A DNA stretch of 63,941 nucleotides, the filler included. It is 8 parts of 8 records of this genome, joined end to end, with 100 filler letters (N's around TTAATTAATTAA, not from the genome) between each part and the next. Parts side by side here need not be neighbours in the genome. Positions count along the whole stretch, not along the records: positions 45,475 to 56,596 come from SRR7504441_11; 7 more parts are not named here. One strand, 5' to 3'. A program made the position numbers and the translations under genes. Below, in pieces: positions 34,152-59,916 of the stretch; within the stretch, counting starts at the first letter, position 1; every line of letters begins with the position of its first letter. Below the pieces are notes generated by a model. The model was not told the origin of the DNA. It worked only from the letters and a program-made list of their open reading frames with translations, and searched no databases.

Positions 34152-34251
34152 NNNNNNNNNNNNNNNNNNNNNNNNNNNNNNNNNNNNNNNNNNNNTTAAT
34201 TAATTAANNNNNNNNNNNNNNNNNNNNNNNNNNNNNNNNNNNNNNNNNNNN
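34152..34251. other. Artificial contig-joining spacer
   Basis: 44 N + TTAATTAATTAA + 44 N. Confidence 0.98.
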
Positions 34252-37200
34252 GTGCAGCTGGTCGGTACAGCGTGGGTGGTGGCAGGTGTCCCGCCGGCTT
34301 TTATTCGGCGCGAGGCTCCCCTACGTGTACAATCTGCCCAGCTGGGTCCAGCTGTCCAAGTACCTCCCTTGTACCAGTGCAGTGCCCTGCTGGTTATTAC
34401 TCCCTAGTTGGAGCAACAAAGTGCTTGCTTTGTCCTCCTGGATACTCGTGCCCAGCTGGAGAATATCCACAGCGCTGTCCAATTGGCTCGTACTCGCTTG
34501 GACCGAACGATAACTGCACCTGGTGCCCTGCAGGCTCAAAATGTCCCCTATCCTCGGAGCCACCTATGCAATGCCCTGAAGGAACGCATTCCCTTGGAGG
34601 AGCTATTGTCTGCACAACATGTCCCGCAGGTTCGGCCTGCAAATTGCGCACAGAGGACGCTGCCGAGCCCTGTCCAGCTGGAAGCTATTCTTTCGGAGCA
34701 AATGGAAATTGCACTGTCTGTGCTGCAGGATGGCAATGCCCACTAGTCACTGGTGCTGCTAATTCTCAATGCACAGCAGGATTTTACTCTGTTGGAAACG
34801 CAACACAGTGTACTCGTTGTCCTGAGGGTTTCGCCTGCCCCTTTACCATTGCTCCTACAATGATTCCATGCACACACGGGACCTATAGTGTTGGTGCACA
34901 AAGCACATGTACAATCTGCCCACCAGGCTTTGCGTGCACTTCAACAGTCTCAGCAACACAGATTCCATGTCATGCTGGGACCTGGTCCGCTGGGCGGCAG
35001 TCAAACTGTACTGCGTGTCCAGTTGGCTTTGAATGTCCTGCAAACACACACAACAGCGCAGCCCCATGCAACCCTGGCTACTACTCTCTTGGTAGCCAAT
35101 CTCAGTGCATCAGGTGCCCTGCAGGAGAGATGTGCCCACTGCCAAACATTACAGGGACTGCTTGTGCAGCTGGTCAGTACAGTTCTGTTGCAAGTATTGG
35201 ATGCTCCACCTGTCCAGCTGGGTACCACTGTCCTTCACCATCTGCTACACCTAGCATGTGTCCACTTGGCACCTGGGCAGCTCCTGGGCAGCAAAGTTGC
35301 TCACCATGTCGTGCAGGATATGTATGCTCTGTTCAGGGAGCTTCTTCTGCAACTGGCGGAAGAGAATCTTGTCCAGACTGCAAAGAGGACTGCCCTGTTG
35401 GCTATTATTGCCCTTCGCAGTCAAGCTCTGCAATTCCCTGTCCACCTGGAACCTATGGGTTTGAACTGAATGCTGAGAATTCAAGTAGTTGTTACACATG
35501 CCCACCTGGGTTCTACTGCATTGGGGGCAGAGCGCATCCAACAGCGGCAGAGCACTGTCCTGCAGGTACACACATTTGCTAGAATTGTGATATCTTAGAG
35601 CAGATGATTGTACTGTCAAGTATTTGCATTTGTTTGCCGTAGATTGATTCCTTGGCAGAGTGGCCAGCATGATAGGTATGCTTGTGGCAGGTCACTACTG
35701 CCCCAATGGCACTAGCTATGCAATGCAGTTCCCATGTCCTGGAGGTACATACCAGCCTGGCCTGGGCCGGGATGATGTTGGCGACTGCTTGACCTGCGAA
35801 GCTGGAACATATTGCCCAGCTAGCTCCACAAATCAGAACAACCTGTGCAAAGCTGGACACTACTGTCCAGCAGGGACAGCCAACTACAGGAGTTATCCAT
35901 GTCCAGTAGGAACATATTCAGGGCCATACACTGCACGTATGTCAGCCGCACAGTGCTATAGATGTACAATGGGCCACTATTGTTCAGAAGGATCGATTCA
36001 GCCTGTGGCATGTAGCCCTGGCACTTTCAATCCAGACTTTGGTGCTGGCTATGAAACAAACTGTATGAATTGCACAGCAGGCCATTCTTGTCCAGTGCCA
36101 GGGCTTGGACATGCAAATGGCACGTGCGCTCCAGGCCACTACTGCCCATCAGGCACAAGCTATCCAACTCAATTCAGTTGTCCAGCTGGCACTTTCACTG
36201 ACCTAAATGACCTTATTCGAGCAGAGGACTGTGACGCCTGCCCATTACGACGAGCATGCTCAGCAGGCACTGGTGGTGAAAGGTATTTCCCTGCCTGTGC
36301 AAAGGCATCCTCGGTCTGCTGATGTGACTTGTGTAGGCAACCTTCTATGCCCTGCGCAGCAGGCTATTATTGTCCAAATGGGACTGCCATTCCAAACCAG
36401 TACCCGTGTCCACCTGGTACCTATACAAACCGTACCAACCTGGCGTCAGCTGCTGAGTGCACAACTTGCGAAGCTGGCTCATTCTGTGCTGGAAATGCGA
36501 CTTCTCCATCTGGAGAATGTGCAGCGGGCTACTACTGCCCTCGTGGTATGTGCGCAAGGCTGCTGATGAGTGATTTTGTTGTTTTTGTAGGATCTTCGTC
36601 ACCTAGAGAACACCCTTGTCCTGCTGGGTCTTACGGTGCTAGCACTGGCCTGACAGCAGAAGCGCAGTGCACAGCATGCCCTCTTGGGAACTTCTGTCTC
36701 GAGGCATCTACTACACCAGAACCATGTACTGGGGGCACATTTAATGACCAACTCGGTGCACAAGCAGCAGGCCCTGGGCCATTTCCCATGTGTCAGCCAT
36801 GCGCTGCGGGACATTTTTGTCCATCTGGATCCATGACTATGACAGCCTGCCTGGAGGGAAGCTACTCTTCCTCTCAAGCAGAGTCTTGTACCACCTGTCT
36901 TGCAGGCTATTTCTGTCCCAATTCGACTACTGAAGCCCAGATGAAAATAAACACCTGCGCTGCTGGCCTCTACTGTCCTGCAGGACAGCCCAAGACACCA
37001 GATGGGGGATCAAATGCCTGTCCGCAGGGCCGATATTGCCCTCAAGCATGCGCTTTGCCAGTTTTATGCCCAGCTGGAACTTACAACCCATCCGAAGGTG
37101 GTAAAGATATTGAAGCATGCAACATATGCCCAGCTGGATCCTACTGCACTGAAGGTGACTAACTTCCTGTGTCACGAGCTCTATTTGTAGCCTGTATTCA

Positions 37201-38435
37201 ATATCCCATTTTTCTGAGCTCAAGCCTGTTTGCAGGCGCTGCATCTCCCACAGGAAAGTGTGCCCCTGGATACTACTGTGATCCTGGGTCAATTGGCCCG
37301 ATGCAGACCCCATGCCCGGCTGGGCGCTATCGGAATCTCACCGGAGGGATGCATTCTCAAGCCTGTGCCGTCTGCATTGCTGGTCATACTTGCCCAGAAG
37401 CCTCGAGCAGGGGAGAGATATGCCCAGCTGGCCACTATTGTGTTACTGGGGCCCAAACTCCAGAGCCCTGCCCAATAGGATCTTATGGCGCAGCACCTGG
37501 TCTTCGGCGCAGTACTGACTGTACACCGTGCCCTGGGGGGTCTTTCTGCCATGGTCTTGGCCTTACCACACCAACTGGTGGTTGCGATCCAGGCTACTAT
37601 TGCTTGCAGTCAGCATATCAATCAGCACCTATCGGACCACCAACAGGAGGCAAGTGCACCCCTGGAGGAGTGTGCCCTTTCGCCTCATCTTCACCGCAGG
37701 CATGCCCTGCTGGTACATACAACAATTTCAGTGGTGCTGAGCACTCAAACGACTGTCAGGCTTGTCTACCAGGGAAGTTCTGCTCTGGGACAACAGATCC
37801 GCATCCTTCTGGCGACTGTCAACCGGGCTATGTGTGTGCTAGTCGATTTGACAATCTGACAAATAGATTTATCGGTGCCATCAGAGCAGATGAGGTTGCC
37901 ACCCCTCCTGGCACGTTTAGTCTAGCAGGCGCCTACGCGCCAACGCCATGCCCAGCTGGAACTTACCAGAACGTGAGTGCACAAGACCGTTGCCTTCCGA
38001 CTCCAGCTGGATATTTCTCGCCACAAGGTACTTTTGATTTTACACAATATGTTTGTACAGCTGGCAACTACTGCCCTGTTGGTACACAGCATGCACAGCA
38101 ATATCCTTGTCCAAGTGGAACAGCAAGTGATCTGGTGGGACTCCAAAAACAGGAGCAATGTCCAAGCTGTCCACCTGGCTCCTACTGTGAAACAGCTGGC
38201 CTTTTACAGCCCACTGGGTTGTGTCGCAAAGGCTACTACTGGACAAAGGACATGCGCAGTGCGTGATGTGCCCACCAGGTGGTCACCCGCACTTGATTTT
38301 TGTGTGACCCAGTGTGACAGGACACTTTTGTGCTGAGGCTGACATTTGTGCCACTGGAACAAATACCTCCACTGTCAGCTTCAATGGAACAAATGCCTCC
38401 ATCGTCAGCTTTAACCAGACAATAACCTGGCCAGT
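34252..38435 (+). CDS. Internal fragment of a very large Cys-rich repeat protein (GCC2/GCC3, ephrin-receptor-like CPxGxYC repeats)
   Basis: Dozens of CPAG(Y/H/T)(Y/F)C and CxxCPxG units; introns 35566-35690, 36283-36336, 36546-36590, 37155-37235 and ~38279-38320; open at both contig ends; apparent frame break near 38240. Confidence 0.85.
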
Positions 38436-38535
38436 NNNNNNNNNNNNNNNNNNNNNNNNNNNNNNNNNNNNNNNNNNNNTTAATTAATTAANNNNNNNNN
38501 NNNNNNNNNNNNNNNNNNNNNNNNNNNNNNNNNNN
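38436..38535. other. Artificial contig-joining spacer
   Basis: 44 N + TTAATTAATTAA + 44 N. Confidence 0.98.
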
Positions 38536-39139: not shown

Positions 39140-42100
39140 ATGAAGTTGGCGAGGTGTGTCGTCCTGGCGATAGTAGCGGCCACGCTGCAATCGGACGGCT
39201 TGCCGGTGGATGACGCCGGTGCGTATCCCTCCGCCGGTGGCTTACGGGGGGACAGGCGCGGTGGGCCGGCTGCTGCTGGCGACGGAGCTGCCGGCCGGCG
39301 AGCAGGCGGCGGGGCTGCGGGTGGATCAGTCCAAGGCCCGGGCGGCGTACGAGCGCTCGCTCGACGAGCTCAAGAAGCTGAACGAGCAAGTCCAGCAGGC
39401 CGAGGAGGCCAAGAAGAGCGCGGCCAAAGAGGTTGCCACCCTGGGCGACAAGCTCAAGGAGGCCGAGAAGGCCGAGCGGGACAAGGACGGGCAGGTCAAG
39501 CAAGAGGAAGCCAACGTGCGCCAACTGGCCGCCCAACTGGCCGAATCGACAAAGGAGCGGGAGGAGCTTCGGGCGGAGCTCTCCAAGATTCGGTTAGCTG
39601 ACCAGCCGGAGCCGGAGGACAGCCAGCCGCTGACCGTGGAGGCCAAGCAGGCCGCCAGCCTGGCCCGCAAGAAGGCGGCCGAGGCGCAGGCCGCGGCCCA
39701 GGAGGCGGCCGACAAGGCGGGCGCGGTGCGGGACGCGGCCAAGAGCGCGGCCAAGAAGGAGGCGAAGGTGCAGGCGGCGCAGGAGGAGCTGGACGTGCGG
39801 CGGAAGGCGGCGCAGGAGGAGCAGCTGCAAGTGCAGGAACTGGAGATGCAGGTCAAGGCTGCCAAGGCCGAGTCCGACAAGCTGGTCGAGAAGGAAGCCA
39901 GCCAGAAGAAGAGCCTGCTTCAGGCCGAGGGCGCGGCAGAGACCAACAAGAAGAGCCTGCAAGATGCCGAGGCCCAGGAGCAAGCCTCGGACCGGCAACT
40001 CAAGCGCAAGGCCGAGCAGGCCGAGCAGCTGGAGCAAAAGGCCCTGGCGGCTGCGAGCGCCATGAAAGAGCGGCAGAGCGCTGCCAACCAGCTGAGCGCG
40101 CAGGTGGCTGATCAGACGGAGCGGGTGCACAAGGTGGAGGCCAAAGCCACCGAGCAGAAGGGGGAGGCTGTCAAAGCCGCAGCCCCGGTGGCGGCCTCCA
40201 ACATCGAGATCGCCGCGGCTGAGAGCAAGCTTGACTCGGTGCGCCAGGATCTCAAGTCTGCCAGGCACGCGCTCGGTGAGATCAAGAGCGAGATTGGCAG
40301 GCTCGAGCTCCAGAAGAGCAAGCTGGCCCAGCAGCTGGACCAGGCCGAGACAAAGCTCCAGATCCAGGAGCGCCAACGGACCGACGCTCAGACCGAGGCC
40401 AGAGTGGCCCAGAGCAAGCTTGCCGATGTGAGCAGCAGGATGGAAGCAAAGAAGAAAGCGGCCACACGGGCGAGTGCAATGGCGGCCTCCAAGCTGCAGA
40501 AGGAGGAGGATTGCGACGAGAGCGTCGCCAAGGCCGTGTCGGCGTATCAGAAGGCCGATGCAGAGAGGCTGGACAGCAAGGTCAAAGCCGAAGGAGAGAA
40601 GCTGGCTGAAACAGCCAGCAAGCAATCCTCGATTGCGGACAAGCTGGCCGCTGCCGAGCAGAAGCTGTCGACCGCAAAGGCCAAAAAGCAGGAGGTTGAC
40701 GCGTCAGTCAGTTCAGCAGCCGATCAGCTCGATCAGGATGCGCAATCAGCAGGCGAGCAAACGGCAGCGGCGGAGGCCCGTGAGCAGCAGGCCAAGGGCC
40801 AGCAGGTGGCAGCCAAGATCGAGGCCGAAGAGGCGCTCAAGGAGGCCGATCGAGTGGACAAGAAGCACCAGAAGGAGGCCAATGAGAGCGCCAAGAAGCT
40901 GGATGCCAAGATTGCGCAGGTCGATCAGCAACTGACAAGAGCCAGGGCTCAGCTGGTGCGGGCCGAGGACCGTTACAGCCAACTGCAGCAGAAGCTGCTC
41001 GGAGTCAAGCAGGCGAGCTCCGGGGCTGAGCAACAGGAAGCCGCAGAGCAGTCCGTGGCAGCCCAGGCCCAGTCAGAGCTGACACAGATGGCGGCCAAGC
41101 GCGACAGCTCCCAGGCGGCGCTGCAGACTCTGCAGGCTGCCGTGGCGGATCCAGCTGAGAAGCAGACGACACAGCTCGAAGCCAAAGCTGAGCAGGCGCT
41201 TGAGAAAGACCAGGCTGCGATCGACCAGTTGGAGGCCAATCTGCAGGCAAACCAGCAAAAGCTTGATTCGGCGCTTGGTGCTGCTCGTGAGGCGACAGCA
41301 GAGAAGGCCAGGATAAATGCAAAAGAGGAGGCGGCTGCTGAGACTGCCAAACAGGTAGCAGAGGAAGCAACAAAGCTGGAGAGGCAGGCTGCAACTGACA
41401 AGGAGGTGGCGGACCTAGAGCTGGTGGCTGCGGCCAAGGAGGGGAAGGCCGCAGCCAGCGACCCAGAAGCGGGCACTGCCAAAAAGGCCAAGGCGGCCGA
41501 GCAGGCTGTGGGGGTCAAACTGCAACAATCTAAGGCCAAGGCCGCAGCGCTGGCAACACAGGAAGAGCAGGCTGTCAAGCAGGCAGCTGAGGCCAAGGCA
41601 GAGCTGAAGCAAGCAGTCAGTCGGGCGGAGCAGGTCAAGCTGCAGGAGCAAAAGGAAGAGCAGGCGCAGCGCAAAATCGAGTCTGAGACATTCCAGGCTC
41701 GGCAACAACGTGACACAGACAAGCAAAAGGCTGGCGAGATGAAGCAGGTTGCAGCGGCCAAGAAGGACGAGGCTGCCAAGGCCGGACGCGAGGCTGCTGC
41801 CGCCAAGCGCGCTGAACAGGAGCTGAAAGACACGGAGGCCGAGGCAGAGCAGAAGAGCCAATCAGGCATGCAAAAGCTGGCCTCTGAGAAGACTAAGCTT
41901 AAAGAGGCAGAGAACAAAGTGGCTGGAGTTGCCGACAAGCTGGGCCGAGTGCAGGATCAACTCCAGGGGCTGAACATGCGCACTCATGAAGCTAAAGGTG
42001 AGGCAGCTGAGGCTCGCACCGAAATGGGAGCCCAGCAAAAGCGTCTGGTTAAGGCCAAAGCCAATTTGAAGGCAGGCAAGCAAGCAGTGGTTCAGCAAGC

Positions 42101-45100
42101 CAAGGAGAAGACGCTAGCAGCCGAGGAAGTCAAAGCAGCCAAGCAGAATTTGGACACGGCGCGTGAAAGGTATACAGATATGCAAACCAAATACCAAAAG
42201 CTGCAGGCACAGAAAAGCAAGGCCACAGAGAAGGTGGCTGACCAACAAATCAAGCTTGATGACATGGTTAGCACTCAGCAGATGGACTCCAAAGATGTGG
42301 AAGCCGCTAAGGATGAGGAACGGCAGGGCAGGGATGCACTTCTGGTAGCAAAAAGTGCCGTCAAGGATGCATCAAATATGGCCAAGAGCAAAGCTGAGAA
42401 AGCGAAGAAAGCCCGTGAGGATGCAAAAGCAGAACAGGTTGCCGCCAAGGGAGCTGTCCGCGCAGCCAAGGAGGCTGCTGAGCAGCAGAAGGAATGCTCT
42501 GAGAGCAAGCAACAGCTTGCACATGCCGAGGCCGCGCAGGAGGCAGCCAGTCTGGAGGTGGAGGCATCTCGATCCGCATACTCCAAGATACAGAATCTAG
42601 CTCAGACCCTCCGACATGAGGCAAACGAGTATGCCGATGCCAAGAATGCGGATGGGCCTGAGTCTCAGGGTGACATTTCCAAACGGGCAGCTAAGGCCAA
42701 CCTCAAGGCTGAGCTTCTGAAGGTCAAAGCCAAGCTTGACGCATCATTGGCTCATGCAGACGCCAACTATGAAACAATGCGGGCCTCAGCAGAGCTTCTC
42801 ACCAGCAAGGCTGAAAGGTACAAAACACATGCAGTCACCGCACGAAACCATGCAGACACTGCAACCAGCGACCTTAAGCATGCTGAGCATGAGGGTCAGC
42901 AGACGATCAAGGAGCTTGAGGCAGCCAAGGCGGAGAGCACCAGGGTGTGCAATGCAGCCAAGGAGCAGGAGATGAAGCTCCCAGATGTGCCAGCCACACC
43001 TAGCTCTGGTGAAATGAAGAAGGACGCCACAGCCACTGCAACTCCAGGGCGCATGCTGCTGCAGGACACGCGCCCAGAGACAGACGCCACTGTTGAGATT
43101 CCTGTGGACGATCAGACCTCAACAGAATCCTCTCTAAGGAAAACGGCAGCTGAGCAAAAATGTGAGATGTCGAAAAAAGCCACCAGTTTGAAGCAAGCCA
43201 TTGTCGATAAACAGAAGACGAAGGTTGCTGAACTGAAGAAGAAGGTTGCTGACCTCCAGACAGTTGCAAAGAAAAAGGAAAGCTGGGTCAAGGAGAATGA
43301 GGAGAAGGCAGCCAAGCAGACCAAGTCAGCTGAGGAGGCCAAGGCAGATGCCATACGACAAGCCCAAGCCAAAGCTAAGGTGGGAGAGAAGCTGGCCAAC
43401 AAGGCTGCAAAAAGAGCACTCGACAAGGGGGCTGCCGCAGATGTGGCAGCCGCAGAGATGACCAAGGAAGAGGTGGACAAACTGCTCGAGCAGAAGTCCC
43501 AACTGGCCCAGGACGAGGCAACCAAAGCTGTTGAACAGGCAAAACAAGATTTTGATGTTGCCATTGCAGCAGCTGAGGAGGCTCGTGGCAGCTGCCAAGG
43601 AGACTCTTCGCAGTGTGACCAGGTACTGCTAGATGCCAAGGCACAGGCAGAGTCAGCAAAGCTCCGGGCAACTGGAGCTGCATTTGATCGACAAGCCGAG
43701 CAGGTTGCTGCTGCTGCAGCTGAGCAAGGTGATGTAGCAAAGACCACTGCACAGATGGATCCACGTGTAGATGCAGCCAAGGAACGGATTGCCACAGCCA
43801 TGGCTGATCTCAAAGGGAAGCAGGAGGCAGTCACGGCCAAGAAAGATCTCCTGGCTGGGAAAGCTTGCAGCGGGGTCTCGGCAGCTGCAATGAAAAGCCA
43901 AGCAGATGAGGCACAAGCCAAAGCGGAGCTGGCCACGCAGAAAGCTTCCTCAGAGGCGACTGCTGTCCAACAGCAGGATCAGGCTCAGGTTGCGGAGGCA
44001 GCAAAGCAGGCAACAGAAGCAGCAGGCCAAGCCAAGGCTAAGCTATCCGCAGTGCAGGCCAAATTGCAGGCAGTGACTAAGAGCACAGACCAGCAGAAGG
44101 CCACACTAGCCGCGGCACAGAAGTTAAAAGACAGCCTCAGCACAGAAGTGGCAAAGGCCTTGAGTGAGATGAAAGGAGCTCAGGCCAAGCTCAAGAAGGC
44201 AACCAAGAGTTACCAAGACGCGCAGATGAAGCTCAGACAGGTGCAGGACAGAGCTGAGGCAGCAAAGGCTGAGGTCACATCAGTCAACACTTTGGTTGAC
44301 CAGGTGCAGAATGACGTTGACACTTCCAAGAGCCTGGTGGAGAAAAACAAGCAGCAGCTGGCTGAACTGAAGTCAAGACAGGCCACGGAGGGCGCCATGG
44401 TCAAGAAACTTACAGATGAAAAGATTGCAGTGCAAGACAAGACAGTTGCTCTCCAAGGAGAAGTGGAAGCGTCAAAGATTGCTGAGGCTGAAGCTCAGAA
44501 GAAAGTTAACAAAATCAAGCAGGACCTGGGCAGCGCAGAAGATGTAGCCAAAGCAGCCACGCAGGCTGCCTCTACTACTAAGAAGTTTGCTGAGCAGGCC
44601 GCTGAGCAGTTTGAGGGCCAAGAAAAGGCTTGGAAAGTCGAGAATAGCAAAGTGCAAGAGCTCAAACAATCTGCAGGCATGGTAGCTCGGCAAATCAAGC
44701 TGGCCAAGGAATCAGCCAAGGAAGCTTCCAGCGCAAATCATGCCAAGGCGCAGGCTTTAAAACAACTGGAGCAGAAAGCAGATGCTTCGCAGCAAGCGGC
44801 AGCTACTGCAAAGAATGAGGCGAACGAGCTAACAAGCGAGGAGAAGAACTTGGCATCAGTGTCTGAGGCGGCGACCAGCATGCGGGAGAAGGCTCTTGCC
44901 GTCAAAGACAAGGCTGCTTACAAGGCCAAGCAGGACAAGCAGAATGCTGACGACGAGGAAGCTGACGCTGCCAAGAAATTGGAAGCTGCAAAAGCTAAAC
45001 AAGGAGAAGCTGCCAAAGCCAAGGGTGTGTTGGATCAGATGAAAGCTGAACAGAAGAAGATAGGAGAGAGGGCCAATGCTGCCAGGGAAGCGGAGAATGT

Positions 45101-45374
45101 CGCCAAGGGCGCAGTGGAGCAATACACAAAGGAGCTTGAAGAGGCTAGATTCGAGAAAGCAGCTGCTCAGGATGCAGTGGACAATGCAAGAGAGCAAGCA
45201 ACAACAGCAGCTAAGGCTGCTGAAGAGGAGAAGTCACGGTTTGCTGAGGCCAAAGCATCTGAGCAAGAGTCTCAGAAGTCATATGATCAAGCCAAAGCGG
45301 CGGCAGCCAAGGCCAACGCCTCGGTAGAGGAACTGCGGGCGTCGAGACAAAGTGCTGTGGAGGCCAGTGACAAC
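39140..45374 (+). CDS. Secreted >2,060-aa Ala/Lys/Glu/Gln-rich coiled-coil protein; 3' truncated
   Basis: Signal peptide MKLARCVVLAIVAATLQSDG joined by a 37-nt intron (39219-39255) to the 6.1-kb ORF; almost entirely helix-forming A/K/E/Q sequence with few Cys. Confidence 0.85.
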
Positions 45375-45474
45375 NNNNNNNNNNNNNNNNNNNNNNNNNN
45401 NNNNNNNNNNNNNNNNNNTTAATTAATTAANNNNNNNNNNNNNNNNNNNNNNNNNNNNNNNNNNNNNNNNNNNN
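45375..45474. other. Artificial contig-joining spacer
   Basis: 44 N + TTAATTAATTAA + 44 N. Confidence 0.98.
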
Positions 45475-45512
45475 AATTTAAGACAGATTCATTACATTTA
45501 ATCGATCGATCA

Positions 45513-48500
45513 TCAATACCATCTACGCACATGGTCGTGTTGTGAGGCCATTGAAAACCTATCTGTTGACTCACGACTTTGAGGTTTCACAGTCCAAATG
45601 GTTCTCCAGTCGACAGAGGTCGGATCTTGACGCGCAAATTCAGGCCTGGGAGGAAGCAACCCCAACTCGGCCTTTTCTCGGACAAGCTGACCTGTGGGGC
45701 CGTATGGGCTGTAACGCACAATGTTTTCAAGCAATGCATACCATCGGAAGAGCTGTGAAAGTGGCTTATATACCAAGGGGTACAGAAAGTAAATCAGCGC
45801 TGGGCTCTTAAGATCGCTGCGATGCTTCAAGCATTTGATATGCCAAACAAGCAGCAAGAGCCATTCAAGTGCAATCAGGAAGAAGATCCACTGGAACAAG
45901 TGGATCTGGCCTTCAGGGTAGGTGAACAGATAAACAAAGAAGAAGATTCGGACCCAATCCTGAAAAATGTTGAACACCTGGCCAGCATACCATCAGTCAA
46001 CTGAGTGTGGTCCTAAAATACACAAGAGACCTCGAGCAAGAAGAAGGGCTTGAGGACTAGAGTACCGAGACCTCCACACCACTGGAACAGCAGGATTTTA
46101 ATGAATTTGAGGGTCATCCGATGTGATGTGACGTCCCAACTTTTCACGCGCTGCTGCCATAGTTGAAGAGTGTAGTCTGGCGGAGCAGTGTGCACCAACT
46201 CCCTAGGCTGATGCTTGATCTTGTACCCCTGCTTCATGCCGTGCAGAATCAGGCCCATCTGCAAATCTTCGCCGTTGAATATGCAGTCATGATTCCACAG
46301 GATACTTGACAACAGAATCGGGCGTTTCCACAGCGCAATAGCCCCATGGCAAGCAAGTGTGGTGCCATAAGAACTCTGTAATTGCTTGAAGAAGCCAGCC
46401 AATAGATATTCTAGGTTCTGGAAAGCAACAAGTTGGTTATCGAGATAATGCCGTGCATTCTTTTGCGCGTCTGCAATATTGACCGCTGAAATCCCATAAG
46501 CAATTGCTTGGATATCTGTTTCTGTTTCCATTTGTTTCAAGGGGAATTGGATTTCTCGTGGCAAACAGACATCGTCGTCAATCATCATAATGTATTTGAA
46601 CTTCGGGCACAGGCTTTGCTGCTCAAGCATTGGGATCCACGAGTCAAGCACCCAGAAAAAAGCGATTGTTTTGTTCCCAACTGGCAGGTAGACGTAATTG
46701 ATCCGTTCCAGCGTGGCCGGTTCACCAAGGCTCATCTGCTCCTGGTTCCAATCAGCCCACACATCCTCGACCAGGCGCCACGTCTCGTCGGGTGGGGCCA
46801 ATTCTCGTGCGTTGTCACATATGAAGATGTGGCTTGGCGGAAAGACCTGTAGTGCAGCTTTGAGCGCATCTTGCAAGCCCTGCCGTTTTTCCTTGGTGCA
46901 GTCGCAACGATGACAAGCAATCAAGAGTGCCACCTCGTGTCGGCTGCCACCATGCATGTGAGTCACATCATTTTTGTCCAGATTGTCCAGCATCTGGTGC
47001 CTCGAGCCCCGCGTGGGCCAGTCAATCTCCAGAATTGCCCAAACAAACAGCAAGTTTTCAAGAATCAATGCACCAAAACAGATGAAGTCATAAGCTCCAT
47101 ACTTGCTAAAGTCGCCAAATGGATTCAAATAGAAGACCCATGTACGGAGTCCTGAGTGAGTGTCAGAGGCCGATGGGGCAGGTGGGGCGAGTGAGAGGAA
47201 TAGGTACACCACCGCCATTCCCATCAGAAAGTGGACACAGTAGAAGCCAAGTCCACGGCCAGTGCACCCGAAGAACGTCTTTTCAGAGTCTTGGTGCGCC
47301 TTTTTCTGCTTTTCCCAGTCGTGAAGAGCTTGTGACCATTCCGGTGGGTGCCGGTCTGGTGGCATTGTCCCCATCATCACACCGCTGGTATCGTCACTGA
47401 GCACTTGCCCCTGGTGCTTGGTCTGGATTTCGGCCAGGATTTCTTTCCGCTCCTGCTGCTCTGACAGCTTATCTCGCCGCTTCTTGCGGATGAAAATGAA
47501 CTCTCCAATCACCCAGAGCGTTGCGAAACCGAGACACACAGCAAAGATGGTGCCGGTCTTCTTGTTGAGGTCGACCCGAAGCAGGTGGTCCAGGAAGGTC
47601 TCTTGCTTTCGCTGGAACAGATATTCCTCTGGCACTACCTGAAACTCGAGGCCGTCTCCCTCCCAAAACAGCTGGATGTGCGGGTAGATAGCTGGGCTCA
47701 TGTACTGCACCACGATGTCCACATAATCCCGGCCGTACAGGCAGCGGTCGCACTTGTTGTCATTGGTCGTCGTGTTAAGAATCGGACAATCGTTTAACCA
47801 GATGGTTGGCGACACGTCAATGTTGGAGAGGCGCGGCGACGAAGCTGCAGGAGCGTTGAAGACTTTGTTCATGCTAGTGGCGTCGCAGAACAAACTAGCC
47901 AGGCACCTGGCTTGCGATTCCTTATCTGCGATCCCCTGGCACACTCCACAGGCTAGGCACTGCTGCGGGCACACTTGATGGTCTGCTCTGTCCTTGCTCA
48001 GCGAAACCGGCAGTTGGGTGCACAGCACTGCAGGTGAGGTGGGCGGCCTCGCAATCCAGCGGTCCAGCGTGCCCGAACTTTGCCGTTGGCTGTACGCGTT
48101 GGCCACACGGCCCATCTGGACCATCTCCCCGTCAGACACCACCGTGAAGCTCAGCCGAGTGACGTAATCCGGGAGCCCGCCCACGTGCACCCGGCCGCGC
48201 CACTCCACCCCGAACTTCTTGGAGGTCTTGGCGTTGCCGTAGAACTGGTCCACGCAGGACTCGTAATCGTACTTGCCGAACGGCCAGTACTGGTGGTCTT
48301 GCTTGCCCCAGTGGAAGTCGAGGCGCTGGTCGGTCTGGGTGAAAGTCTCGCACGCCCCCCGGAACCAGTCCAGATTCAGATCCGAGTGGTAGTCGCTCTC
48401 CTTGCCGTATTGGAAGTAGGAGGCCTCGAGCCCGGACCCGTCCCGCACCGCGAACCACCAGTCGAACATCAGGCCCACAAAGGCCCAGACCGCGAACACG

Positions 48501-48577
48501 AGCAGCAAGACCACGCTGTCCCGGGCCACGGCCTTGAGCTGGGCCGGCTCCATCCCGCACAGGATCCGAGCCGCCAT
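45513..48577 (-). CDS. Membrane-integral processive GT2 glycosyltransferase (polysaccharide synthase-like) with N-terminal PA14-like domain, ~1,003 aa
   Basis: IFICDN, GNKT, MMIDDDV (DxD), GAIALW, NGEDL and QQRVKSW (QxxRW variant) motifs; several TM helices; PA14-like GLEASYF...FGVEWRGRV...QLFWEGDGLEFQVVPEEYLF; one intron 45978-46030 joins the two ORFs in frame. Confidence 0.85.
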
Positions 48578-48657
48578 AGCTCAGAGTGCAGCCAGGTGCC
48601 TGCCCTCCACCGAGAGCAAGCCTGCCCAACGGACTTTGGCGGAGGCGCCGTACCGTC
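48578..48657. promoter_or_regulatory. 80-bp divergent (bidirectional) promoter/5' UTR region
   Basis: Lies between head-to-head ATGs at 48577 (-) and 48658 (+). Confidence 0.55.
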
Positions 48658-51600
48658 ATGACGGGAACCGCAGCGGGAGAGCCGGCTCCGGAAGAGGGCA
48701 TAGACGAGGATGCGCTCTCGCGGCAGCTGGCTGTGTATGGGGTGGCCGGTCAAGCCAAGATCAAGCGGTCGCACGTGCTGGTGAGCGGGATGGGCGCGCT
48801 GGGGATCGAAATCGCCAAGAACCTCTGCCTGGCTGGCGTCCGAGCGGTCACCATCCACGACACAACCGACGCCACCCCGGCCGATCTGAACGGCAACTTC
48901 TACCTGTCCCCCGCCGACGTGGGCGCCAACCGGGCCTCGGGCACACTGGCTAAGCTCAAGGTGCTCAATCCGCAGGTGACAGTGGCGGCCCGCACCGACG
49001 AGCTGGCCGAGCTGGCCGGCGTGACGGTGCTGGTGGCCACCGAGATGCGGCTGGAGCAGCAGCTGAAGCTGAACGCGGTCTGTCGGGCCCAGGGGATCAG
49101 GTTCATCGCAGCGGAGGTGCGCGGGGTGTTCGGGAGCTGCTTCGTGGACTTTGGGGACGAGTTCGTGACCAGCGACCCCAACGGCATGCCCGTGATCCAG
49201 TGCATGCTGTCCAACATCAGCCGGGGCAGCCCGTGCCAACTGACCACCGTGGAGGAGGGGGTGGACCCAAAGACCGGCAAGATGCAGTATAAGCGCCACG
49301 AGCTGTATGACGGCGACACAATAACTCTCTCTGGTGTCAACGGCCTCCGGGCGGACGAGGCCGATGAGCAGTCGCCGATCGAGGCGGTCGAGCTGGCCGT
49401 CAAGGTGGTCGACCCGCACAACCTGACGGTCGATTTCGACACGTCGGAGCTCTCCGCTTACATTGGCGGCGCATCGATCACCGAGGTGAAGCAGCCCGTC
49501 CCGATCGGTTTCCAGCCGCTCCAAGCCAACGTGAGCGCGCCGGTGTTCATGATGGCCAACTCGCCGGATGAGGACAAGCAGTGGAACACGGCCTACTCGC
49601 AGGCGGCGCTCCACCTTGGGTTCCGGGCGCTCCACCAGTTTATTGAATCCGAGGGCCGGCTGCCCGGGCCGTGGTGCCAGGCAGACGCCGACGCCGTGGT
49701 CCAGATCGCCAGGGAGATCAACGGGGAGGACGGGGAGGTGGATCTGGCCGGCGGGCTGGCCGCGCGTCCGATTGAGCTGCTCGCGTTGACTAGCAGCGGG
49801 GTGCTCGCGCCACTGAGTGCGGTGCTGGGCGGGTATGTGGCCCAGGAGGCGCTCAAAGCGGTGATGGACAAGTACACCCCGCTCCAGCAGTACGTGTACA
49901 TGGCCTGCGAGGAGGTGGTGCCGGTGGATCTGGCCCAGCCGAGCCTCGAGTACGACCCGGTCGAGTTCCAACCGCACGATGGACAGACCGACGCGCAAGT
50001 GGTGTGCATCGGCAGGGATACCTGCGCCAAGCTGGCAGAGCTCAATCTGTTCATGATCGGGGCGGGCGCGATTGGGTGCGAGCTGATCAAGAATCTGGCC
50101 ATGCTCCGGTGCTGCACCCGCGGTAAGCTGCTGGTGACCGACCCGGACTCGATCGAGAAATCAAATTTAAACAGACAATTCCTGTTCACCTACAACGACA
50201 TCAGCCAGAACAAGTCGACCACCGCGATCAAGGCGGTGCAGGCCATGTACCCCCAGATGCAGGCCGAGTCTCTCACCGACCTGGTGGCGCCCTCCACAGA
50301 GGACAAGTTCCATGCAGACTTCTGGGATGCCCAGGACTGCTTCCTGAACGCGCTGGACAACGTCAAGGCCAGGGCGTACGTGGACCAGCGCTGTGCGGCG
50401 GCGCATAAGCCGCTGATTGACTCGGGCACCACGGGAACCAAGGGGCACACGCAGGTGGTAGTGCCTCTGCTCACAGAGACCTGGGGCGACCAAAAGGACC
50501 CGGATGTTGAGATGGGCATCCCGGAGTGCACCGTCAAGTTCTGGCCGTCAGTGATCGCGCACACCATCTCCTGGGCCAAGCAGCAGCTCGAGCTTCGGTT
50601 TTTCAGCGCGCCGGTCGAGATCAACAAGCTGCTCTCTGGTGACTTCAGCGAGAATGTGGCCAACTCAAAGGGCAAGGACGCGGCCAATCTGCTCAAGACA
50701 CTCAAGATGCTCAAAAAGCTGCTCGTAAACCGGCCGGCTGACTATGCCGACTGCTGCAGACTGGCGCGGACCAAGTTTGAGAAGCAGTTCAACCACCGGA
50801 TTCGACAGCTACTGATTGCGCACCCGGCGGACAAAATGGAAACGTTCAAGGATCAGCAGGGCAACGAATGCCAGAAACCATTCTGGTCGCTGCCTCGCCG
50901 GCTGCCAACTGCAATTGAGTTTGACCCGGCCGACTCGGCGCACGTGGACTATGTGATTGCGTATGCCATGCTGCTCTATCGACTGTGGAAGATGCCAGAG
51001 CCCGCTGAATGGTCTCACGAGGACAAGCAGGCGCAAGCCAGAGCGGTCGTGGCTGAAATGCAGCCTGAGCCTTTCGATGACAACAAGGTCGACCTGAACA
51101 AATTCAAGGAGGGCGTGTCTGCCAACGATTTGAAGAAAGCTGACAAAGCCAAGTTTGATGGCAGCCAGATGGCGGATCTGGCAGCCTTGACCCAGGAGCT
51201 GGCCGAGATGCTGGCTGAGGGTGGCGATGGACTTCAGTTCCTTGAAGACGAGTTTGAGAAGGACCACGATAGCAACTACCACATTGCATTCATCACAGCG
51301 GCTTCCAACATGCGGGCCCGGTGCTACTCTATCAAGGAGGAGACATTTTTGCAGACAAAGCTGATTGCGGGCAAGATTATTCCTGCAATTGCCACGACCA
51401 CCACTGTGGTGTCGGCAGCTGTAATCATCGAATTGATTAAGATCGTCCAGCAGCGGCCGCTAGAATCATTCAAGACCCTCTATTTGGATCTGGCCCTGCC
51501 AGTTTTGACTCATTACACCCCAAAGCAGCCGATTCAGAAGATGGTGCTTGCCCGCCCTTCGAGCTCCAAAGACGACTCCGCCTGGCAAGAAGTCTCAGGC

Positions 51601-54600
51601 TGCCTGCCGTACACTGCCTGGGACAGATGGGAAGTGCGCGAAGGCGACCTGACCATCAGGGCTCTGATTGAGCACTTCAAAGCCTTCTACGGCCTGCTGG
51701 TGTGGTCTGTCTTCTGGCATGGCCAGGCGGTGTTGGAAGGGCTTGGAGAGTCAGAGGTCTTCACTGGTGCGACTAAGAAGGCTGCCCTGAAGGAGCTGGC
51801 AGCAGTGATTGACCGCAAACTGACTGAGGTGCTGCAACAGGCAGCAGATGAAGACGCAGAAGGCGCAGACGCTGAGGATGCACAGGGGCCATTTGAAGAG
51901 TCAGAGCCCCTTGAGCTACTCATCACCTTCCGAACACCAAGCGGCGATGTGGTCAAAGAGACGCCGAAAGTGGTCGTTCACCTATCCGAGGCTGCGCGCG
52001 TCGAGGGCTTCTCCCAGCGTGCGGTGCTGCTTGAGAAACGGTTGGCGCTCCAAGATGAAGTGGTGGCCCAATTGAAAGAGGCCCTCGCGGCCAAGCCCGA
52101 GGTCCCAGTATGGAATCCAGTCCAGATTGTACTGTATGAGGGTGAGCACCCGACGCCTGCTTCAATTGCGCTCGAAGGCATGCTGTGTGAGCTGGGGATG
52201 GCGTACAGCAAGGAGCCTCAGTCGAAGGATGGCCCCGTGCTTGACCAGGATGGGCTGACCTTCTGGGACATGAAATCGGCCATCACACACATTGCCAATG
52301 TCAGCGCGATACCGTCATGGTATCCTCAGGAGGTAGAGGCGCGCACAAGGTGTCATGAGGCGCTGTTCTTGCATGAGAAGTGGCTCACGCCATACCTGAT
52401 TGAAACCATACTTGCTCCGTCGATGGGCTGGCGGGATGAGGTATCTGATGACGAACGATCCAAAGCGTGTGCAGAGTTGAGACAAGTTGCCTGGCCGCGC
52501 ATCCAATCGCTGCTCGAGCGCAGTGGCGGACCGCTGCTTGGTGGCGCCTACCCTTCCATGGGCGACCTGGTTGTGGGTATAGCCCTCACAGCAGCCCAAC
52601 TTCGGCTTCCAACCCTCGATATCTGGACCTCCCAGGTCTCCCAGTACACAAAAACTCTCAAGGTCAAGCTGCGGCAATGGGCAGAGTACATGGCACGGCA
52701 GGAGGTTGTGTTTGGAGGCTACTGCCTGCAAGCTCAGTTGCCGGAAGGGCAAGGGACTGTGGAGGATACTGACCAAGCTACTGTCGGGCAGCTGCTGGAC
52801 AAGCTGGCAGAGCTGAGCGGGCTTGCCGTGGATGACATGGCAATCAAGTGCGGAGGGGGCATCCTTGGGTGCAGGGCTGTGGTGCTGTTGGGGTACCCAG
52901 ACTGCAAACTCGAACCAGGCTATGACTGCGATCTCAAGCTGATTGATCTGGGGGTGCATCATAATGATGTGATCCTTGTGCGCTCAATTGCATCGCTTGA
53001 AGCCGACGATGGCGCCAACACCTGTGGTCCTTGTGGCCCACCACTACTCACTCGAACCACCACAGGTAACCGGGCGGTTTGCCCTGTCTGCTCAAAAGTA
53101 TTTGAGATGCATAACATCCAAGGCCACATCGAAATGCACCTTGAAGGCTCTGAGGATGGCCAAAGTGACGCGCCGGCAGGTCAGCTAGTTCGTACCTACA
53201 CGCGACACATCCTGGAAGAAGTACCTCAGATCACAAAGATCGATATGGACGAGGCTGGGCACGTCTTTTTCCCTTTTAAAGACGACGAGCCACGCGACGA
53301 GGCTCACATCGAGCAGGAGATTGCTTATCTGGTCGAGGGCCTGCCAAAGAAGAATCTGTCGGGCGGCGCCATGTTTGTAGCAAGGGACGTCAAGCGGCAG
53401 TACTATCTCAAGTGCATGGTCATCGGCCCGGAGGAGACGCCGTATGAATCCGGCTGCTTTGAGTTTGACATTGCGTTGCCTCCGAACTACCCCAAGTCTC
53501 CGCCCAAAGTACAACTTGTCACTACGGGCCGGGGTGCAGTCCGATTCAACGCGAATATGTATGCCAATGGCAAGGTGTGCTTATCACTGCTGGGCACCCA
53601 CTCCGGTGGGCTGCCGTGGGACCCCAAATCGTCCACTCTGCTCCAGGTAGTTGAGTCAATTGCGTGGTGCATCATGATTGGGAACGAAGTGCCTCGGCAT
53701 CCTTGGTTCAATGAGCCAGGGTACGCTGACGGGTATGAGCAGACAGGTAAGCTGACCGAATTGGCACAGGCACTGTCAGCCACCTACAACCGGGAGATCA
53801 GGAGGTGCACTATCAAGATTTGCATGATTGACCAAATTAAGTACCCACCTCTAGGATTTGAGGATGCAATCCGCGAGCACTTTTCGGCCAAAGGCGATGC
53901 AATCCTGGCCAAGGTGCGTGAGTGGGAAGCTGAAGATACTGAGGACGATTTCCAAGATATCTACCAACTCCGCCAGGAGGCTATCGTAGCATATAGCTCG
54001 GAACAGCTGCAAGGGGTTCTGAACAAGATGGTTTCTCTTCGCGAGAAGATGCGAGATGATTCCGACATACCAGAGGAGCCAGCAGTGCAGAACGTAACGG
54101 TGGAGGAAGTATCAGAGGAGGACTACATCACACTCAGCTGGACTCACCCTAAGGAGAAATTGGGCATCAAGTTTCACAATAATTCTTACATGATCTATAC
54201 CGTCAGCAAGAATGTTGGTAAGAAGAAATTCATGCTCCAGCGTCAGTTCAAGTGGCTCTGCCAGATCAACGGCCGAAGCGTCTTTGAAGCGCCTCTGAAA
54301 GAGAACATGAACGAAGTTTACAAGAACACACGACCGTTGGAGCTCACTTTCACAACTGAGGAAGAATACCTCAGGATCCGGCCAGCGGATTATCAAGAAG
54401 TGAGCGCTCCAGTCGAGGACGACACAATCGAAGCCGAGTTTGATAAGGACATCGCCAAGGCCCAGGAGAGACTTGCCCAGATGAAGGAGGCTGAGACCCA
54501 TTCGCTCGAGCAGGAAGCCGAAACATTTATCACCAGGGTAGACAAGCTGAGAGCGTTGTTAGAAGAAGACATCGGTGACCTGAACGACGAAGAAGTATAC

Positions 54601-56287
54601 AGCCCAGAGCCGGAGGCCCCTGAAGACCGAGATCCTGAATCGGAACCAATTTTCCTGTGGTACTTTTCGACCGTGGACTGCGAGGCGGCACCAGAGAGCG
54701 AGCAGGTGCAAGAGTGGGGAGAGTTCGACATGGACTCGAGCGCTTACCTTGAAGAGATGTTCGCTGAGGACTCAGCATCACCTGGATTTGAGATTGACAT
54801 CGGCGGACAGACCTATGTGATCGATTTGGCCGGTATGACCCAGACAAATACGGAATCTGGCACCAAGAGGTGGATCAAGCGTGAGCAGAAGCCAGTGTTG
54901 GACAAGGAGGCCGAGGAGGCGGCCCTGCAAGAGAGCCTGGCCACGCTGTTGGCTGTGACTGGTGGGCAGTACCCAGAGGATGTGCTGCTGGCGCTGCTCA
55001 AGCACCACCCAGCAAAGGACAACTTGGATGCAGTGATGAATGCTCTGTTTGCACCCGACTTCAACGGGATGCTGTGGCTGCAGAAGAGCTCGCAGGCAGA
55101 TTCAGTTGCTCAGAGCCTAGCGGGGTTGCCAAGGAGTCAAGTGGTGGAGGAATGGGTCTGCTGGTGTGGCGCCAACCAGCCTGTAGCTACGAACGTTTGC
55201 TCGATCTGCCAGCAGCCTCGGCAGCCCACTGCAAAGATTGTCCCCCGGCGGGCAACTACGGCAGAGGTTCTCAACAGGCTATCTGACAAGGTGACGCCGT
55301 ACAAAGAGGCGGTGGAAGAAGCAAGACAGCTGTGCTTTCTGCTGCAGGCACCAGCAGTGGTGTGGGAGTACGTGCCACCCGGCCAGAACAAGTGGCACAG
55401 CTTTGAAAGAGACGATATTGCAAAGATCGAGCGATGGTGCCAGCAGGGGGGCGAGCCTAACATCGAGGTCAAGCTACCTGGGCAGGGCAAGTACATTGTG
55501 GACATGGAGCAGCTCCGGATGCAGAAGTTTAATCCAGGGATGGGCTTCCAGGGTGGCAACACAATCCAACCGGTGACCCTGCCCCCATGCACACCTGCTG
55601 ACATTTGTGCAGGTCCGCCGGCGGGAAATGGGCTCGCGCATGACTGAGCTCTTCGAAAAGGCCCAGTTGAACGAGTCGGAGGCTTCGGCTCTGCTGGCTC
55701 AGCTTCAGACCAAGCATGACGCAATCAAGAAAAAGATTACGCAACATGCGGAAGAAGGCATAGATGACCAAAAGGAGGACGGGGAGTGCGCTATAATGTG
55801 GCCTCAGTGCGCAGAGTGCACGTTCATCAATGAGATTTCCGCAACTCACTGCGAGATGTGCAACGCCCCTGCGCCTCCTGCGATAGTGAACCCATTCGCT
55901 GAGGTCCTTGAGAAGACTTGGACCTGCGAGAAATGCAATTCCAAGAACCCTGACAACGCAACCGGCTGTATGTACTGTGGCATGCTTAACCCCTGGCTAC
56001 AAGGGCTCGGAAATTCACAGTATCTTGGAGGCAATTTCTCCATGTCCTATCAAGCTGGATATGGATTTGGTGGCAAGCAAGGCCCCAAGGGCAAAGGAAT
56101 CGATAAGCAGAAAGTTTTTGATACTGTTGTGGGCAGCCAGGGGCCTTTCATTACACGCACTATCACCACCACGGCTCTCAGAGAGGAGCTCGAAGATCTG
56201 ATCACGAGGCTGAAGAGCGGCGAGAACGTCACCTGTAGCACCGATGATCGGGCTCCTGTGGTCAATCCGCGCTATGATGCTCACTAG
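48658..56287 (+). CDS. UBA6-like E1 / GST-like / Ub-like / UBZ / BIRC6-UBE2Z-type E2 / PDZ-like / WWE / UBA-CUE-like / RanBP2-NZF fusion protein, ~2,529 aa
   Basis: One open frame 48658-55572 plus a 40-nt intron (55573-55612, branch-like GCTGAC) to the last exon. E1: SRQL, GAGAIGCE, DPDSIEKSNLNRQFLF, ALDN, catalytic IPECTVK (Cys 50527-50529), FEKD, IAGKIIPAIATTT, UFD to ~51985. E2: GPEETPYESGCFEFD...YPKSPPKV...TTG...RFNANMYANGKVCLSLLGT (Cys 53578-53580)...PWFNEPGY. Confidence 0.92.
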
Positions 56288-56596
56288 ACACCCCTTATTT
56301 GGGAACTTTATATTACAAGTAATATTAAACTCATCAAACGTATATTAAGGTACATGAATTGTACGCAACACATGACATTGAGTCTCTGTCTGGCTAGACT
56401 AGTGGAGGTGGGTCAGGCTGCCTGACAGTCATAATTTATTATGACAGCCATAATTGTCTCGCGGCAGCTAGTTTTTTTTGGCCAGCAGCTAAGCATTAAT
56501 TAGCGTTACGGTAGCTTCCATCTAAGCTTAAATTTGAATCTTTGTTACTCGTATTACACCCATTAGTTGATTAGTGTTGTGAATTAAACATAACAT

Positions 56597-56696
56597 NNNN
56601 NNNNNNNNNNNNNNNNNNNNNNNNNNNNNNNNNNNNNNNNTTAATTAATTAANNNNNNNNNNNNNNNNNNNNNNNNNNNNNNNNNNNNNNNNNNNN
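56597..56696. other. Artificial contig-joining spacer
   Basis: 44 N + TTAATTAATTAA + 44 N. Confidence 0.98.
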
Positions 56697-59816: not shown

Positions 59817-59916
59817 NNNNNNNNNNNNNNNNNNNNNNNNNNNNNNNNNNNNNNNNNNNNTTAATTAATTAANNNNNNNNNNNNNNNNNNNNNNNNNNNN
59901 NNNNNNNNNNNNNNNN
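59817..59916. other. Artificial contig-joining spacer
   Basis: 44 N + TTAATTAATTAA + 44 N. Confidence 0.98.

Follow-up and report, generated by a model that had tools for sequence, protein, structure and literature searches.

The stretch of DNA analysed here (the window; 63,941 nt) consists of eight contigs joined end to end. One of them, the 11.1-kb contig at positions 45475-56596, carries a gene in which a ubiquitin-activating enzyme (E1) and the ubiquitin-conjugating (UBC) domain of an E2 enzyme are encoded together. The contig holds two genes, this E1-E2 gene on the plus strand and a divergent glycosyltransferase-like gene. An open reading frame (ORF) of 2353 codons extends from 48586 to 55647 on the plus strand without an internal stop; its first ATG is at 48658 and it closes with a TGA at 55645. 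A first-pass annotation of the window had proposed an E1-E2 fusion on the basis of short motifs. All E1 and E2 motifs quoted there are present in this single frame, and the corresponding matches are far beyond chance (E = 5.4e-173 to UBA1 and 7.8e-42 to BIRC6). The fusion is real, being contained in one frame and found with the same domain order in relatives. Its extent had been given as 50050..53920, which does cover the active adenylation domain through the UBC, but the gene is larger and occupies 48658-56287.

The 3’ part of the gene model was derived by comparison with P0364, the closest full-length relative, which is transcriptome-derived. Near 55560-55613 the similarity to P0364 shifts to another frame. 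When 40 nt with GT-AG borders and a CTGAC branch-like site (GTGACC...CTGAC...TGTGCAG) were removed in silico, the tail aligned to residues 2012-2342 of P0364 in one high-scoring segment pair spanning the junction (E = 4.9e-49). Because of the frame shift and the single alignment across the spliced junction, a spliceosomal intron is predicted here. The gene matches the transcript-derived P0364 collinearly from the E1 over the linker and the UBC into the tail, and P0395, a transcript of Incisomonas marina, has the same domain order. Near-identical short contigs are also present in four metagenome runs. From these sequences we conclude that the E1-E2 gene is a real nuclear gene of a marine microbial eukaryote. 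Its features are the following:

48658..56287, plus strand, whole E1-E2 gene: exon 1 48658-55572, intron 55573-55612, exon 2 55613-56287 including the stop; predicted product 2529 aa
48703..49275, plus strand, E1 inactive adenylation domain (first ThiF-like half): Pfam ThiF, VSGMGALGIEIAKNL at 48781-48825; borders approximate, from the UBA1 alignment
49285..49722, plus strand, E1 FCCH (49285-49491; Pfam E1_FCCH, 8.2e-08) and four-helix bundle (49492-49722; Pfam E1_4HB, 2.7e-15)
49993..50544, plus strand, E1 active adenylation domain, N-terminal part: ATP-binding MIGAGAIGCELIKNL at 50053-50097, DPDSIEKSNLNRQFLF at 50140-50187, DSGTTGTKGHT at 50419-50451
50527-50529, plus strand, codon of the E1 catalytic Cys, in IPECTVKFWP (50518-50547) just ahead of the SCCH; residue 648 counted from 48586
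50545..51360, plus strand, E1 SCCH domain: Pfam UBA_E1_SCCH, 1.7e-55, full profile 1-254
51616..51900, plus strand, E1 ubiquitin-fold domain (UFD), divergent; begins at WDRW (51619-51630)
51901..52734, plus strand, linker with no assigned fold: first ~170 residues conserved with P0364; residues 39-1278 of P0001 are collinear with P0364
52735..52854, plus strand, UBX-like (ubiquitin-like fold) domain: Pfam OTU1_UBXL, 24.5 bits for the segment alone (cut-off 22.7) and 20.5 bits in the whole protein
53080..53139, plus strand, CxxC...HxxxH zinc finger: weak C2H2-type Pfam matches, E 0.07-0.08
53308..53934, plus strand, BIRC6-type UBC with C-terminal helical extension: phmmer against the PDB, Pfam UQ_con 7.7e-19, UBC tree
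within 53521-53556, plus strand, five-residue UBC loop GRGAV, in TTGRGAVRFNAN, before the active site
53578-53580, plus strand, codon of the UBC catalytic Cys, in NGKVCLSLLG; residue 1665 counted from 48586
54709..54882, plus strand, WWE domain 1: Pfam WWE (6e-21; two stretches, 1.9e-19 in the overall Pfam scan), Foldseek
55153..55218, plus strand, putative CxC...CxxC zinc ribbon: sequence pattern and helices/strands of the model, no Pfam match
55354..55557, plus strand, WWE domain 2, borders approximate: second Pfam WWE stretch; aligns with P0364 2072-2155, where the WWE match is sub-threshold
55573..55612, plus strand, predicted spliceosomal intron, 40 nt
55805..55981, plus strand, RanBP2-type zinc ribbons in exon 2: Pfam Zn_ribbon_RanBP 6.9e-09 and DZR 7.4e-05 on window 55607-56287

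By their domain content, the first 1080 residues make up a canonical ubiquitin-type E1, apparently complete with a divergent UFD, which is followed after a linker by the UBC, two WWE domains and several zinc ribbons. The linker between E1 and UBC comprises ~470 residues including the UBX-like fold and the zinc finger; the latter we take, from its pattern, to be possibly of the ubiquitin-binding UBZ type. A model of the C-terminal region with a mean predicted local distance difference test (pLDDT) score of 58 served only for the WWE match: in Foldseek it retrieved the WWE domains of TRIP12, ZAP, RNF146 and HUWE1 with E-values of 5e-05 to 1e-03. In the same model the helical region ahead of the zinc ribbon may be read as UBA-like.

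The E1 module has the two ThiF-like halves in one chain, with the FCCH, four-helix bundle and SCCH insertions recognized by Pfam. The ThiF profile matches in two stretches (3e-72, 243 bits in total). FEKQFNH lies at 50776-50796, and IPECTVKFWP, MIGAGAIGCELIKNL and DPDSIEKSNLNRQFLF line up with the same motifs in 53 E1s, the column of the catalytic Cys being conserved in 53 of 53. Against the PDB, the best score is obtained with UBA1 (580.7 bits, against 566.7 bits and E = 9.1e-169 for UBA6), and the BLASTP alignment to UBA1 extends to residue 1052 of 1058.

The first-pass annotation had contrasted UBA6 and UBA1 by motifs, and this contrast held in a larger set. At three sites (DPD/DND, KGH and WDxW) the signature (P/N)-H-W is found in 26 of 128 aligned E1s, among them all seven proteins named UBA6, the Telonema protein P0006 and all nine E1s that are part of fused proteins (see below). 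The commonest UBA1-type state is M-N-F (50/128). The window E1 reads P-H-W, as do six of the seven named UBA6 proteins, the seventh being N-H-W; it has the UBA6 signature including FEKxFNH and lacks the UBA1-type states DMD, KGN and WDRF. In the alignment, and dependent on it, a one-residue gap in the region of UBA6 residues 655-700 (window ~50560-50700) is common to all 20 non-UBA1 rows. These are animal UBA6, two unnamed sequences, the clade of the window E1 and the clade of E1s that follow a UBC; the gap is absent in most UBA1 rows. The region is called the gate helix in PMC13623948 (this and the other papers cited were available as extracts).

Separate maximum likelihood (ML) trees of the E1 and the UBC, as proposed in the first-pass annotation, placed the E1 outside UBA1 and the UBC within a BIRC6-like clade, the latter in a tree without a UBE2Z row. 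Neither of the two outcomes that the annotation had named as contradicting it, an E1 grouped firmly with UBA1 or a UBC outside the BIRC6/UBE2Z clade, was obtained. The careful E1 tree comprises 36 rows and 1004 columns and is unrooted, with no SUMO- or NEDD8-E1 outgroup. Half of its rows (18/36) form a UBA1 clade with 100/100 support, which takes in animals with UBA7, fungi, Dictyostelium, red algae, oomycetes, Ancyromonas and Mantamonas; the window E1 is outside of it, and a quick 53-row tree agrees. The E1s of the window and of P0364 group together (100/100) and are then joined by a stand-alone E1 of Telonema subtile (100/100). The E1s located downstream of a UBC form their own clade (100/100). 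The suggestion that the E1 is UBA6 therefore stands as far as the signature residues and the exclusion from the UBA1 clade are concerned, but orthology with animal UBA6 is not supported by the trees. The defensible statement is that the window E1 would represent a non-UBA1 lineage with UBA6-type signatures, that is, a UBA6-like E1.

The assignment of the UBC can be made with more precision. Its motifs GCFEFD (53452-53469), TTGRGAVRFNAN (53521-53556), WDPKSSTLLQV (53617-53649), PWFNEPGY (53701-53724) and the YN..IR..T...HF tail (53785-53883) had suggested the BIRC6/UBE2Z class. A phmmer comparison with all PDB chains gave 146.9 bits for BIRC6, 135.4 for Drosophila Bruce, 91.7 for UBE2Z, 86.6 for UBE2O and ~40 for ordinary E2s. 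The BIRC6 match covers query residues 75-283 and that to UBE2Z only 95-251. In the alignment with BIRC6, the sole gap ahead of the catalytic Cys is one of two residues in the BIRC6 row, close to where the alignment starts and before the UBC core. No gap interrupts the part from there through the active site, and the alignment goes on over the C-terminal helices to residue 279 of the BIRC6 construct. The asparagine of the HPN-equivalent motif (FNAN) is present. Judged by scores and tree, the UBC is clearly BIRC6-type within the proposed class, and by score the small E2 UBE2Z (USE1) is not its closest relative.

In the UBC tree (63 rows and 221 columns, UBE2O-like rows as outgroup) 57 rows including the window UBC form the BIRC6-like clade with 100/97 support, the inner backbone of which is unresolved. 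The window UBC groups with that of P0364 (100/98) and then with P0126 and P0127 (100/99). The last two, 1072-1074 aa long and from ENA metagenomes, match the window protein from the UBX-like domain through the UBC into the tail and have no E1; they may be an unfused E2 counterpart or gene calls clipped at the 5’ end. At E-values up to 0.01, Pfam revealed neither a BIR domain nor a BIRC6-specific family in the window protein, which is therefore a protein with a BIRC6-family UBC and not BIRC6 itself, a scaffold of ~4800 aa.

Before the active site, TTGRGAVRFN aligns without gaps to TTGGHSVRFN of BIRC6, so that the loops GRGAV and GGHSV are equal in length. We take this loop to correspond to BIRC6 residues 4649-4653, presuming that the catalytic Cys of BIRC6 is residue 4666; this agrees with the numbering of the PDB chain. 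A five-residue insertion loop of the UBC was described as determinant of charging by UBA6 over UBA1 (PMC13623948), and animal BIRC6 is charged by UBA6 via the UFD and the SCCH gate helix, into which the UBC insertion loop fits (PMC12999496, PMC13623948).

The combination of the two modules is not restricted to the window. Altogether 10 protein clusters fuse a non-UBA1 E1 with a BIRC6-like UBC, three with the E1 first and seven with the UBC first. A search for long relatives yielded four of 7998 scored candidates, all with E1 and UBC domains; further fusions were found among 97 long UBC matches (three) and among the 120 E1 matches listed (one). Cluster look-ups supplied longer members and names. 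The two arrangements are:

E1 then UBC, linker ~500 residues, 3 clusters: window protein; P0002/P0364 (EukProt transcriptome); P0232/P0395 (Incisomonas marina)
UBC then E1, linker ~100 residues, 7 clusters: two of Picozoa (up to 5319 aa); the ciliate Pseudocohnilembus persalinus; four metagenome proteins

In the three clusters of the first arrangement, sequence conservation covers the entire E1. The ciliate protein is an NCBI entry under a generic name. In the ML trees the E1s of the two arrangements fall in separate clades, and so do the UBCs. Two separate clades for each partner would fit two independent fusions, but this is not secure. One exclusive clade of all nine fused UBCs was rejected (p = 0.0023 in the approximately unbiased, AU, test). 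Weighing against independence, a clade of the fused UBCs together with P0126/P0127 was not rejected (p-AU 0.114), and the two clades of fused E1s share one side of a 97/92 split and may be sisters. A single old fusion, followed by a change in domain order and by fissions giving rise to the Telonema E1 and to P0126/P0127, is therefore possible. Whichever history applies, the sequences argue that a non-UBA1 E1 and a BIRC6-family UBC are kept together repeatedly outside animals. The recurrence in 10 clusters and in both domain orders strengthens the argument of the first-pass annotation that the fusion marks a functional partnership (Rosetta stone).

Further domains accompany the two modules in some relatives. 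In the Picozoa proteins P0366, P0367 and P0374 (4621-5319 aa), the UBC is preceded by APC10/DOC-like, ankyrin, UBA and EF-hand domains. BIRC6-like UBCs are also fused elsewhere, to a Ufd2 (E4) core, to RING and UBX domains, in giant scaffolds with SPRY, ZZ and F5/8C domains, and as tandem triple UBCs (P0261, P0163, P0166, P0189; P0205, P0207, P0211; P0288, P0303, P0315; P0224). The BIRC6-like UBC family thus seems prone to form all-in-one enzymes.

Our preferred reading, to which we assign a probability of roughly 0.7, is that a single polypeptide of ~2500 residues would catalyse the E1 as well as the E2 step of ubiquitylation, and that the pairing of a UBA6-like E1 with a BIRC6-family E2 predates animals. 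Several results weigh against it. The mean identity of the E1 to UBA1 (36.6%) and to UBA6 (36.1%) is about equal, and UBA1 has a slight lead in the PDB score. The UFD, on which recruitment of the E2 mainly depends, is 23-30% identical to any reference group, and the Pfam profile E1_UFD scores 18.7 bits (0.0028), under the cut-off of 25 and over profile positions 1-31 only. The window E1 lies outside the animal UBA6 clade (100/100), which two unnamed sequences join at 97/92, and the best tree separates UBA1 and UBA6 from the window clade and the clade with the UBC first at 97/92. Constraining the window clade to group with UBA6 lowers the log-likelihood by 7.4 and is borderline rejected (p-AU 0.047); a constraint to group it with UBA1 lowers it by 5.4 and is not rejected (p-AU 0.158). 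When the tree was rooted by the two adenylation halves (106 rows and 165 columns), the UBA1 clade was recovered in both halves and the root fell among long branches or in a polytomy. Moreover, Drosophila BIRC6 is charged by UBA1 (PMC12999496), and the type of the UBC therefore does not dictate the type of the E1; a BIRC6-type UBC taken alone does not point to UBA6.

The identities, scores and tree results would be accommodated if the fusion were real and its E1 unrelated to UBA6. Such an E1 could be a third lineage, or an offshoot from the UBA1 side that is old or evolves fast. Its UBA6-like residues would in that case be retained ancestral states or convergent, and the fusion would be uninformative on the pairing of UBA6 and BIRC6 in animals. 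We consider this less likely, since three co-varying signature sites are common to all named UBA6 proteins and all fused E1s, the gate-helix-region deletion is present in every non-UBA1 row, and the UBA1 crown excludes the window clade with full support. At two of the three signature sites, the E1s of SUMO and NEDD8 are UBA1-like. If this holds, the shared P/N-H-W states would be derived, which would favour one UBA6-like group. As to activity, the divergent UFD and the prediction of enzyme function from sequence alone leave room for one module being a dead pseudo-enzyme, so that the protein would be a scaffold, or would work as an E2 of the usual kind that receives ubiquitin from a separate UBA1. 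This is improbable: the cysteines of both active sites, the loop for ATP binding, the DxD...NRQ residues and the FNAN asparagine of the UBC are in place, and conservation along the whole E1 is seen in the three clusters that have it first. An AlphaFold model of residues 1105-1600, computed for the linker from a 6-row alignment, was unusable (mean pLDDT 42), and transfer within the chain is suggested by domain order alone; both points also count against the preferred reading. The origin of the contig was considered as well. It is compact (11 kb, with 80 nt between divergent start codons), as might be expected of a giant virus or another mobile element, but the scan of IMG/VR revealed no relative, the predicted GT-AG intron has a CTGAC branch-like site, and relatives occur in cellular transcriptomes and single-cell genomes of Incisomonas, Picozoa, Telonema and a ciliate, all of which makes such an origin very improbable. 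Finally, the window was put together from metagenome-type contigs, and among the near-identical contigs of four other metagenome runs none bridges the E1 and UBC parts, which could point to a chimeric assembly or to two adjacent genes read as one. That the fusion is such an artefact is hardly credible: the 7-kb frame is free of stops between E1 and UBC, the artificial spacers of the window are outside the gene, the linker is conserved with the Trinity transcript P0364, and P0395 and P0232 independently have the same order.

Under the preferred reading of a bifunctional enzyme, the E1 module would adenylate ubiquitin and form a thioester on its own Cys, and the ubiquitin would then be handed to the Cys of a tethered UBC, which may belong to the same chain or, in an oligomer, to another one. 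The pairing of E1 and E2 would be guaranteed by their fusion. The UBC could act as an E3-independent E2/E3 hybrid like BIRC6 and UBE2O, and the targets might be chosen by the WWE domains, which are poly-ADP-ribose readers, together with the ubiquitin-binding-type, zinc-ribbon and UBA-like elements. Since other protists have the two modules fused the other way round, a UBA6-like E1 lineage and BIRC6-family E2s probably formed a dedicated partnership before animals arose. It is tempting to speculate further, although we hold this only tentatively, that a second, UBA6-like activation lineage was devoted to BIRC6-family E2s long before animals and was hard-wired in both orders in a stramenopile, in Picozoa, in a ciliate and in other marine taxa, resulting in self-contained E1-E2-reader machines. 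The window protein would then ubiquitylate poly-ADP-ribosylated or ubiquitylated targets without free E1, E2 and E3.

Comparison with known systems shows what is particular about the protein. The solved complexes of animal UBA6 and BIRC6 (e.g. 9qgw, 9xgb) likewise contain a canonical single-chain E1 with the UBA6-type signature, and their UBC also has the five-residue loop and is extended at the C-terminus; in the window both modules are in one polypeptide, whose E1 does not fall in the animal UBA6 clade. Unlike BIRC6, the window protein has no BIR domain or giant scaffold, and it has UBX-like, WWE and zinc-ribbon domains instead. Its E1 has the same domain architecture as UBA1, the divergent UFD apparently included, and UBA1 gives the best single PDB score, yet the pan-eukaryotic UBA1 clade excludes the window E1. 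UBE2O and BIRC6, the E2/E3 hybrids, are also large multidomain proteins with a UBC of the same wider family, which suggests by analogy that the window protein could ubiquitylate substrates independently of an E3. UBE2O-like rows are an outgroup to the window UBC, though, and Pfam found no UBE2O-specific domains in the window protein. The WWE folds match those of the ligases RNF146, HUWE1, TRIP12 and Deltex, and this analogy suggests that ubiquitylation might be directed by poly-ADP-ribose; in those ligases WWE is paired with RING or HECT, whereas in the window protein it is joined directly to the E1-E2 unit.

E1 and E2 activities in one chain are also known from Cap2 of the bacterial cyclic oligonucleotide-based antiphage signalling system (CBASS). 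Cap2 has a simple ThiF/MoeB-type E1, in which FCCH, SCCH and UFD are not known to occur. The Cap2 models match ~90 residues of the Rossmann core of the window protein with 22-51 bits, the best PADLOC E1-E2 model reaching 50.7 bits. By its architecture the window protein belongs with the canonical E1s of eukaryotes and not with the Cap2 group. A literature search for the term E1-E2 fusion returned only bacterial Cap2 and unrelated viral glycoproteins, and an earlier mention in the papers by Burroughs et al. on E1/E2 evolution is possible. The term is used in the former sense for Cap2-type proteins in PMC12355090.

The published views on the age of UBA6 differ. According to the extracts, UBA6 was lost in nematodes and arthropods (PMC12999496), it is placed only in chordates and echinoderms (PMC12355090), or it originated in the ancestor of fungi and animals, for which Burroughs et al. 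are credited (PMC11354881). Besides ubiquitin, UBA6 activates FAT10, and inositol hexakisphosphate (InsP6) is bound in its SCCH (PMC12355090). The extract of PMC4327156 contains no mention of UBA6, BIRC6 or such fusions.

The fusions described here are of interest for several reasons. Why animals retain UBA6 as a second ubiquitin E1 with private E2s is under active study, and natural fusions of a UBA6-like E1 with a BIRC6-type UBC, found in both orders and across several groups of protists, would provide evolutionary evidence of an old and functionally tight pairing. E1-E2 specificity is normally set by transient docking. The fused proteins could serve as a compact natural system for E1-to-E2 thioester transfer and possibly as a minimal ubiquitylation enzyme.

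The remaining features concern the composition of the window and the surroundings of the gene. Seven identical artificial spacers (44 N, TTAATTAATTAA and 44 N) separate its eight contigs, and the spacers and the second gene of the contig are located as follows:

6794-6893, 27596-27695, 34152-34251, 38436-38535, 45375-45474, 56597-56696 and 59817-59916, no strand, spacers
45375-45474, no strand, spacer (N44, TTAATTAATTAA, N44) at the left end of the contig of the E1-E2 gene; its right end is the spacer 56597-56696
46013-48577, minus strand, glycosyltransferase family 2-like gene, 854 aa, divergent from the E1-E2 gene

The start codons of the glycosyltransferase-like gene and the E1-E2 gene are 80 nt apart, a very compact layout. 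The GC content changes abruptly from one segment to the next (0.44 to 0.66 in 2-kb windows), which is explained by the separate contigs, and linkage between segments should therefore not be assumed. This applies to the ORFs with TSP1, WSC, fn3 and F5/8C domains, which are on other contigs and the linkage of which to the E1-E2 gene is unsupported. Near-identical short contigs came from four aquatic or marine metagenome runs of four studies, with at most 302 nt on the stretch. Of two scans of metagenome contigs, the first returned nothing and the second one contig (L001, 1122 bp), and protein Atlas searches, including one for the linker, gave no usable match. Among the sequencing runs listed as matching the stretch there is no RNA run, and the shares are at most 0.11.

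Two very long ORFs are found on other contigs. The ORF 6919-16740 encodes 3273 aa, its sole Pfam matches being TSP_1 and TSP1_spondin in one stretch near the C-terminus, and the ORF 39210-45422 (2070 aa) has no Pfam match. In 18508-26331 and in 35660-38266, three long ORFs each lie in the same frame, parted by single stops (TGA at 19819, TAG at 22990, TGA at 36320 and TAA at 37160), and the downstream ORFs have no ATG. Candidate tiny GT-AG introns span two of these stops (36283-36336, 54 nt, and 37155-37190, 36 nt). A variant genetic code was ruled out as explanation because the stops are mixed (TGA, TAG and TAA). Tiny introns fit better, and each of the two runs is probably one gene interrupted by very short introns, comparable to that of 40 nt in the E1-E2 gene.

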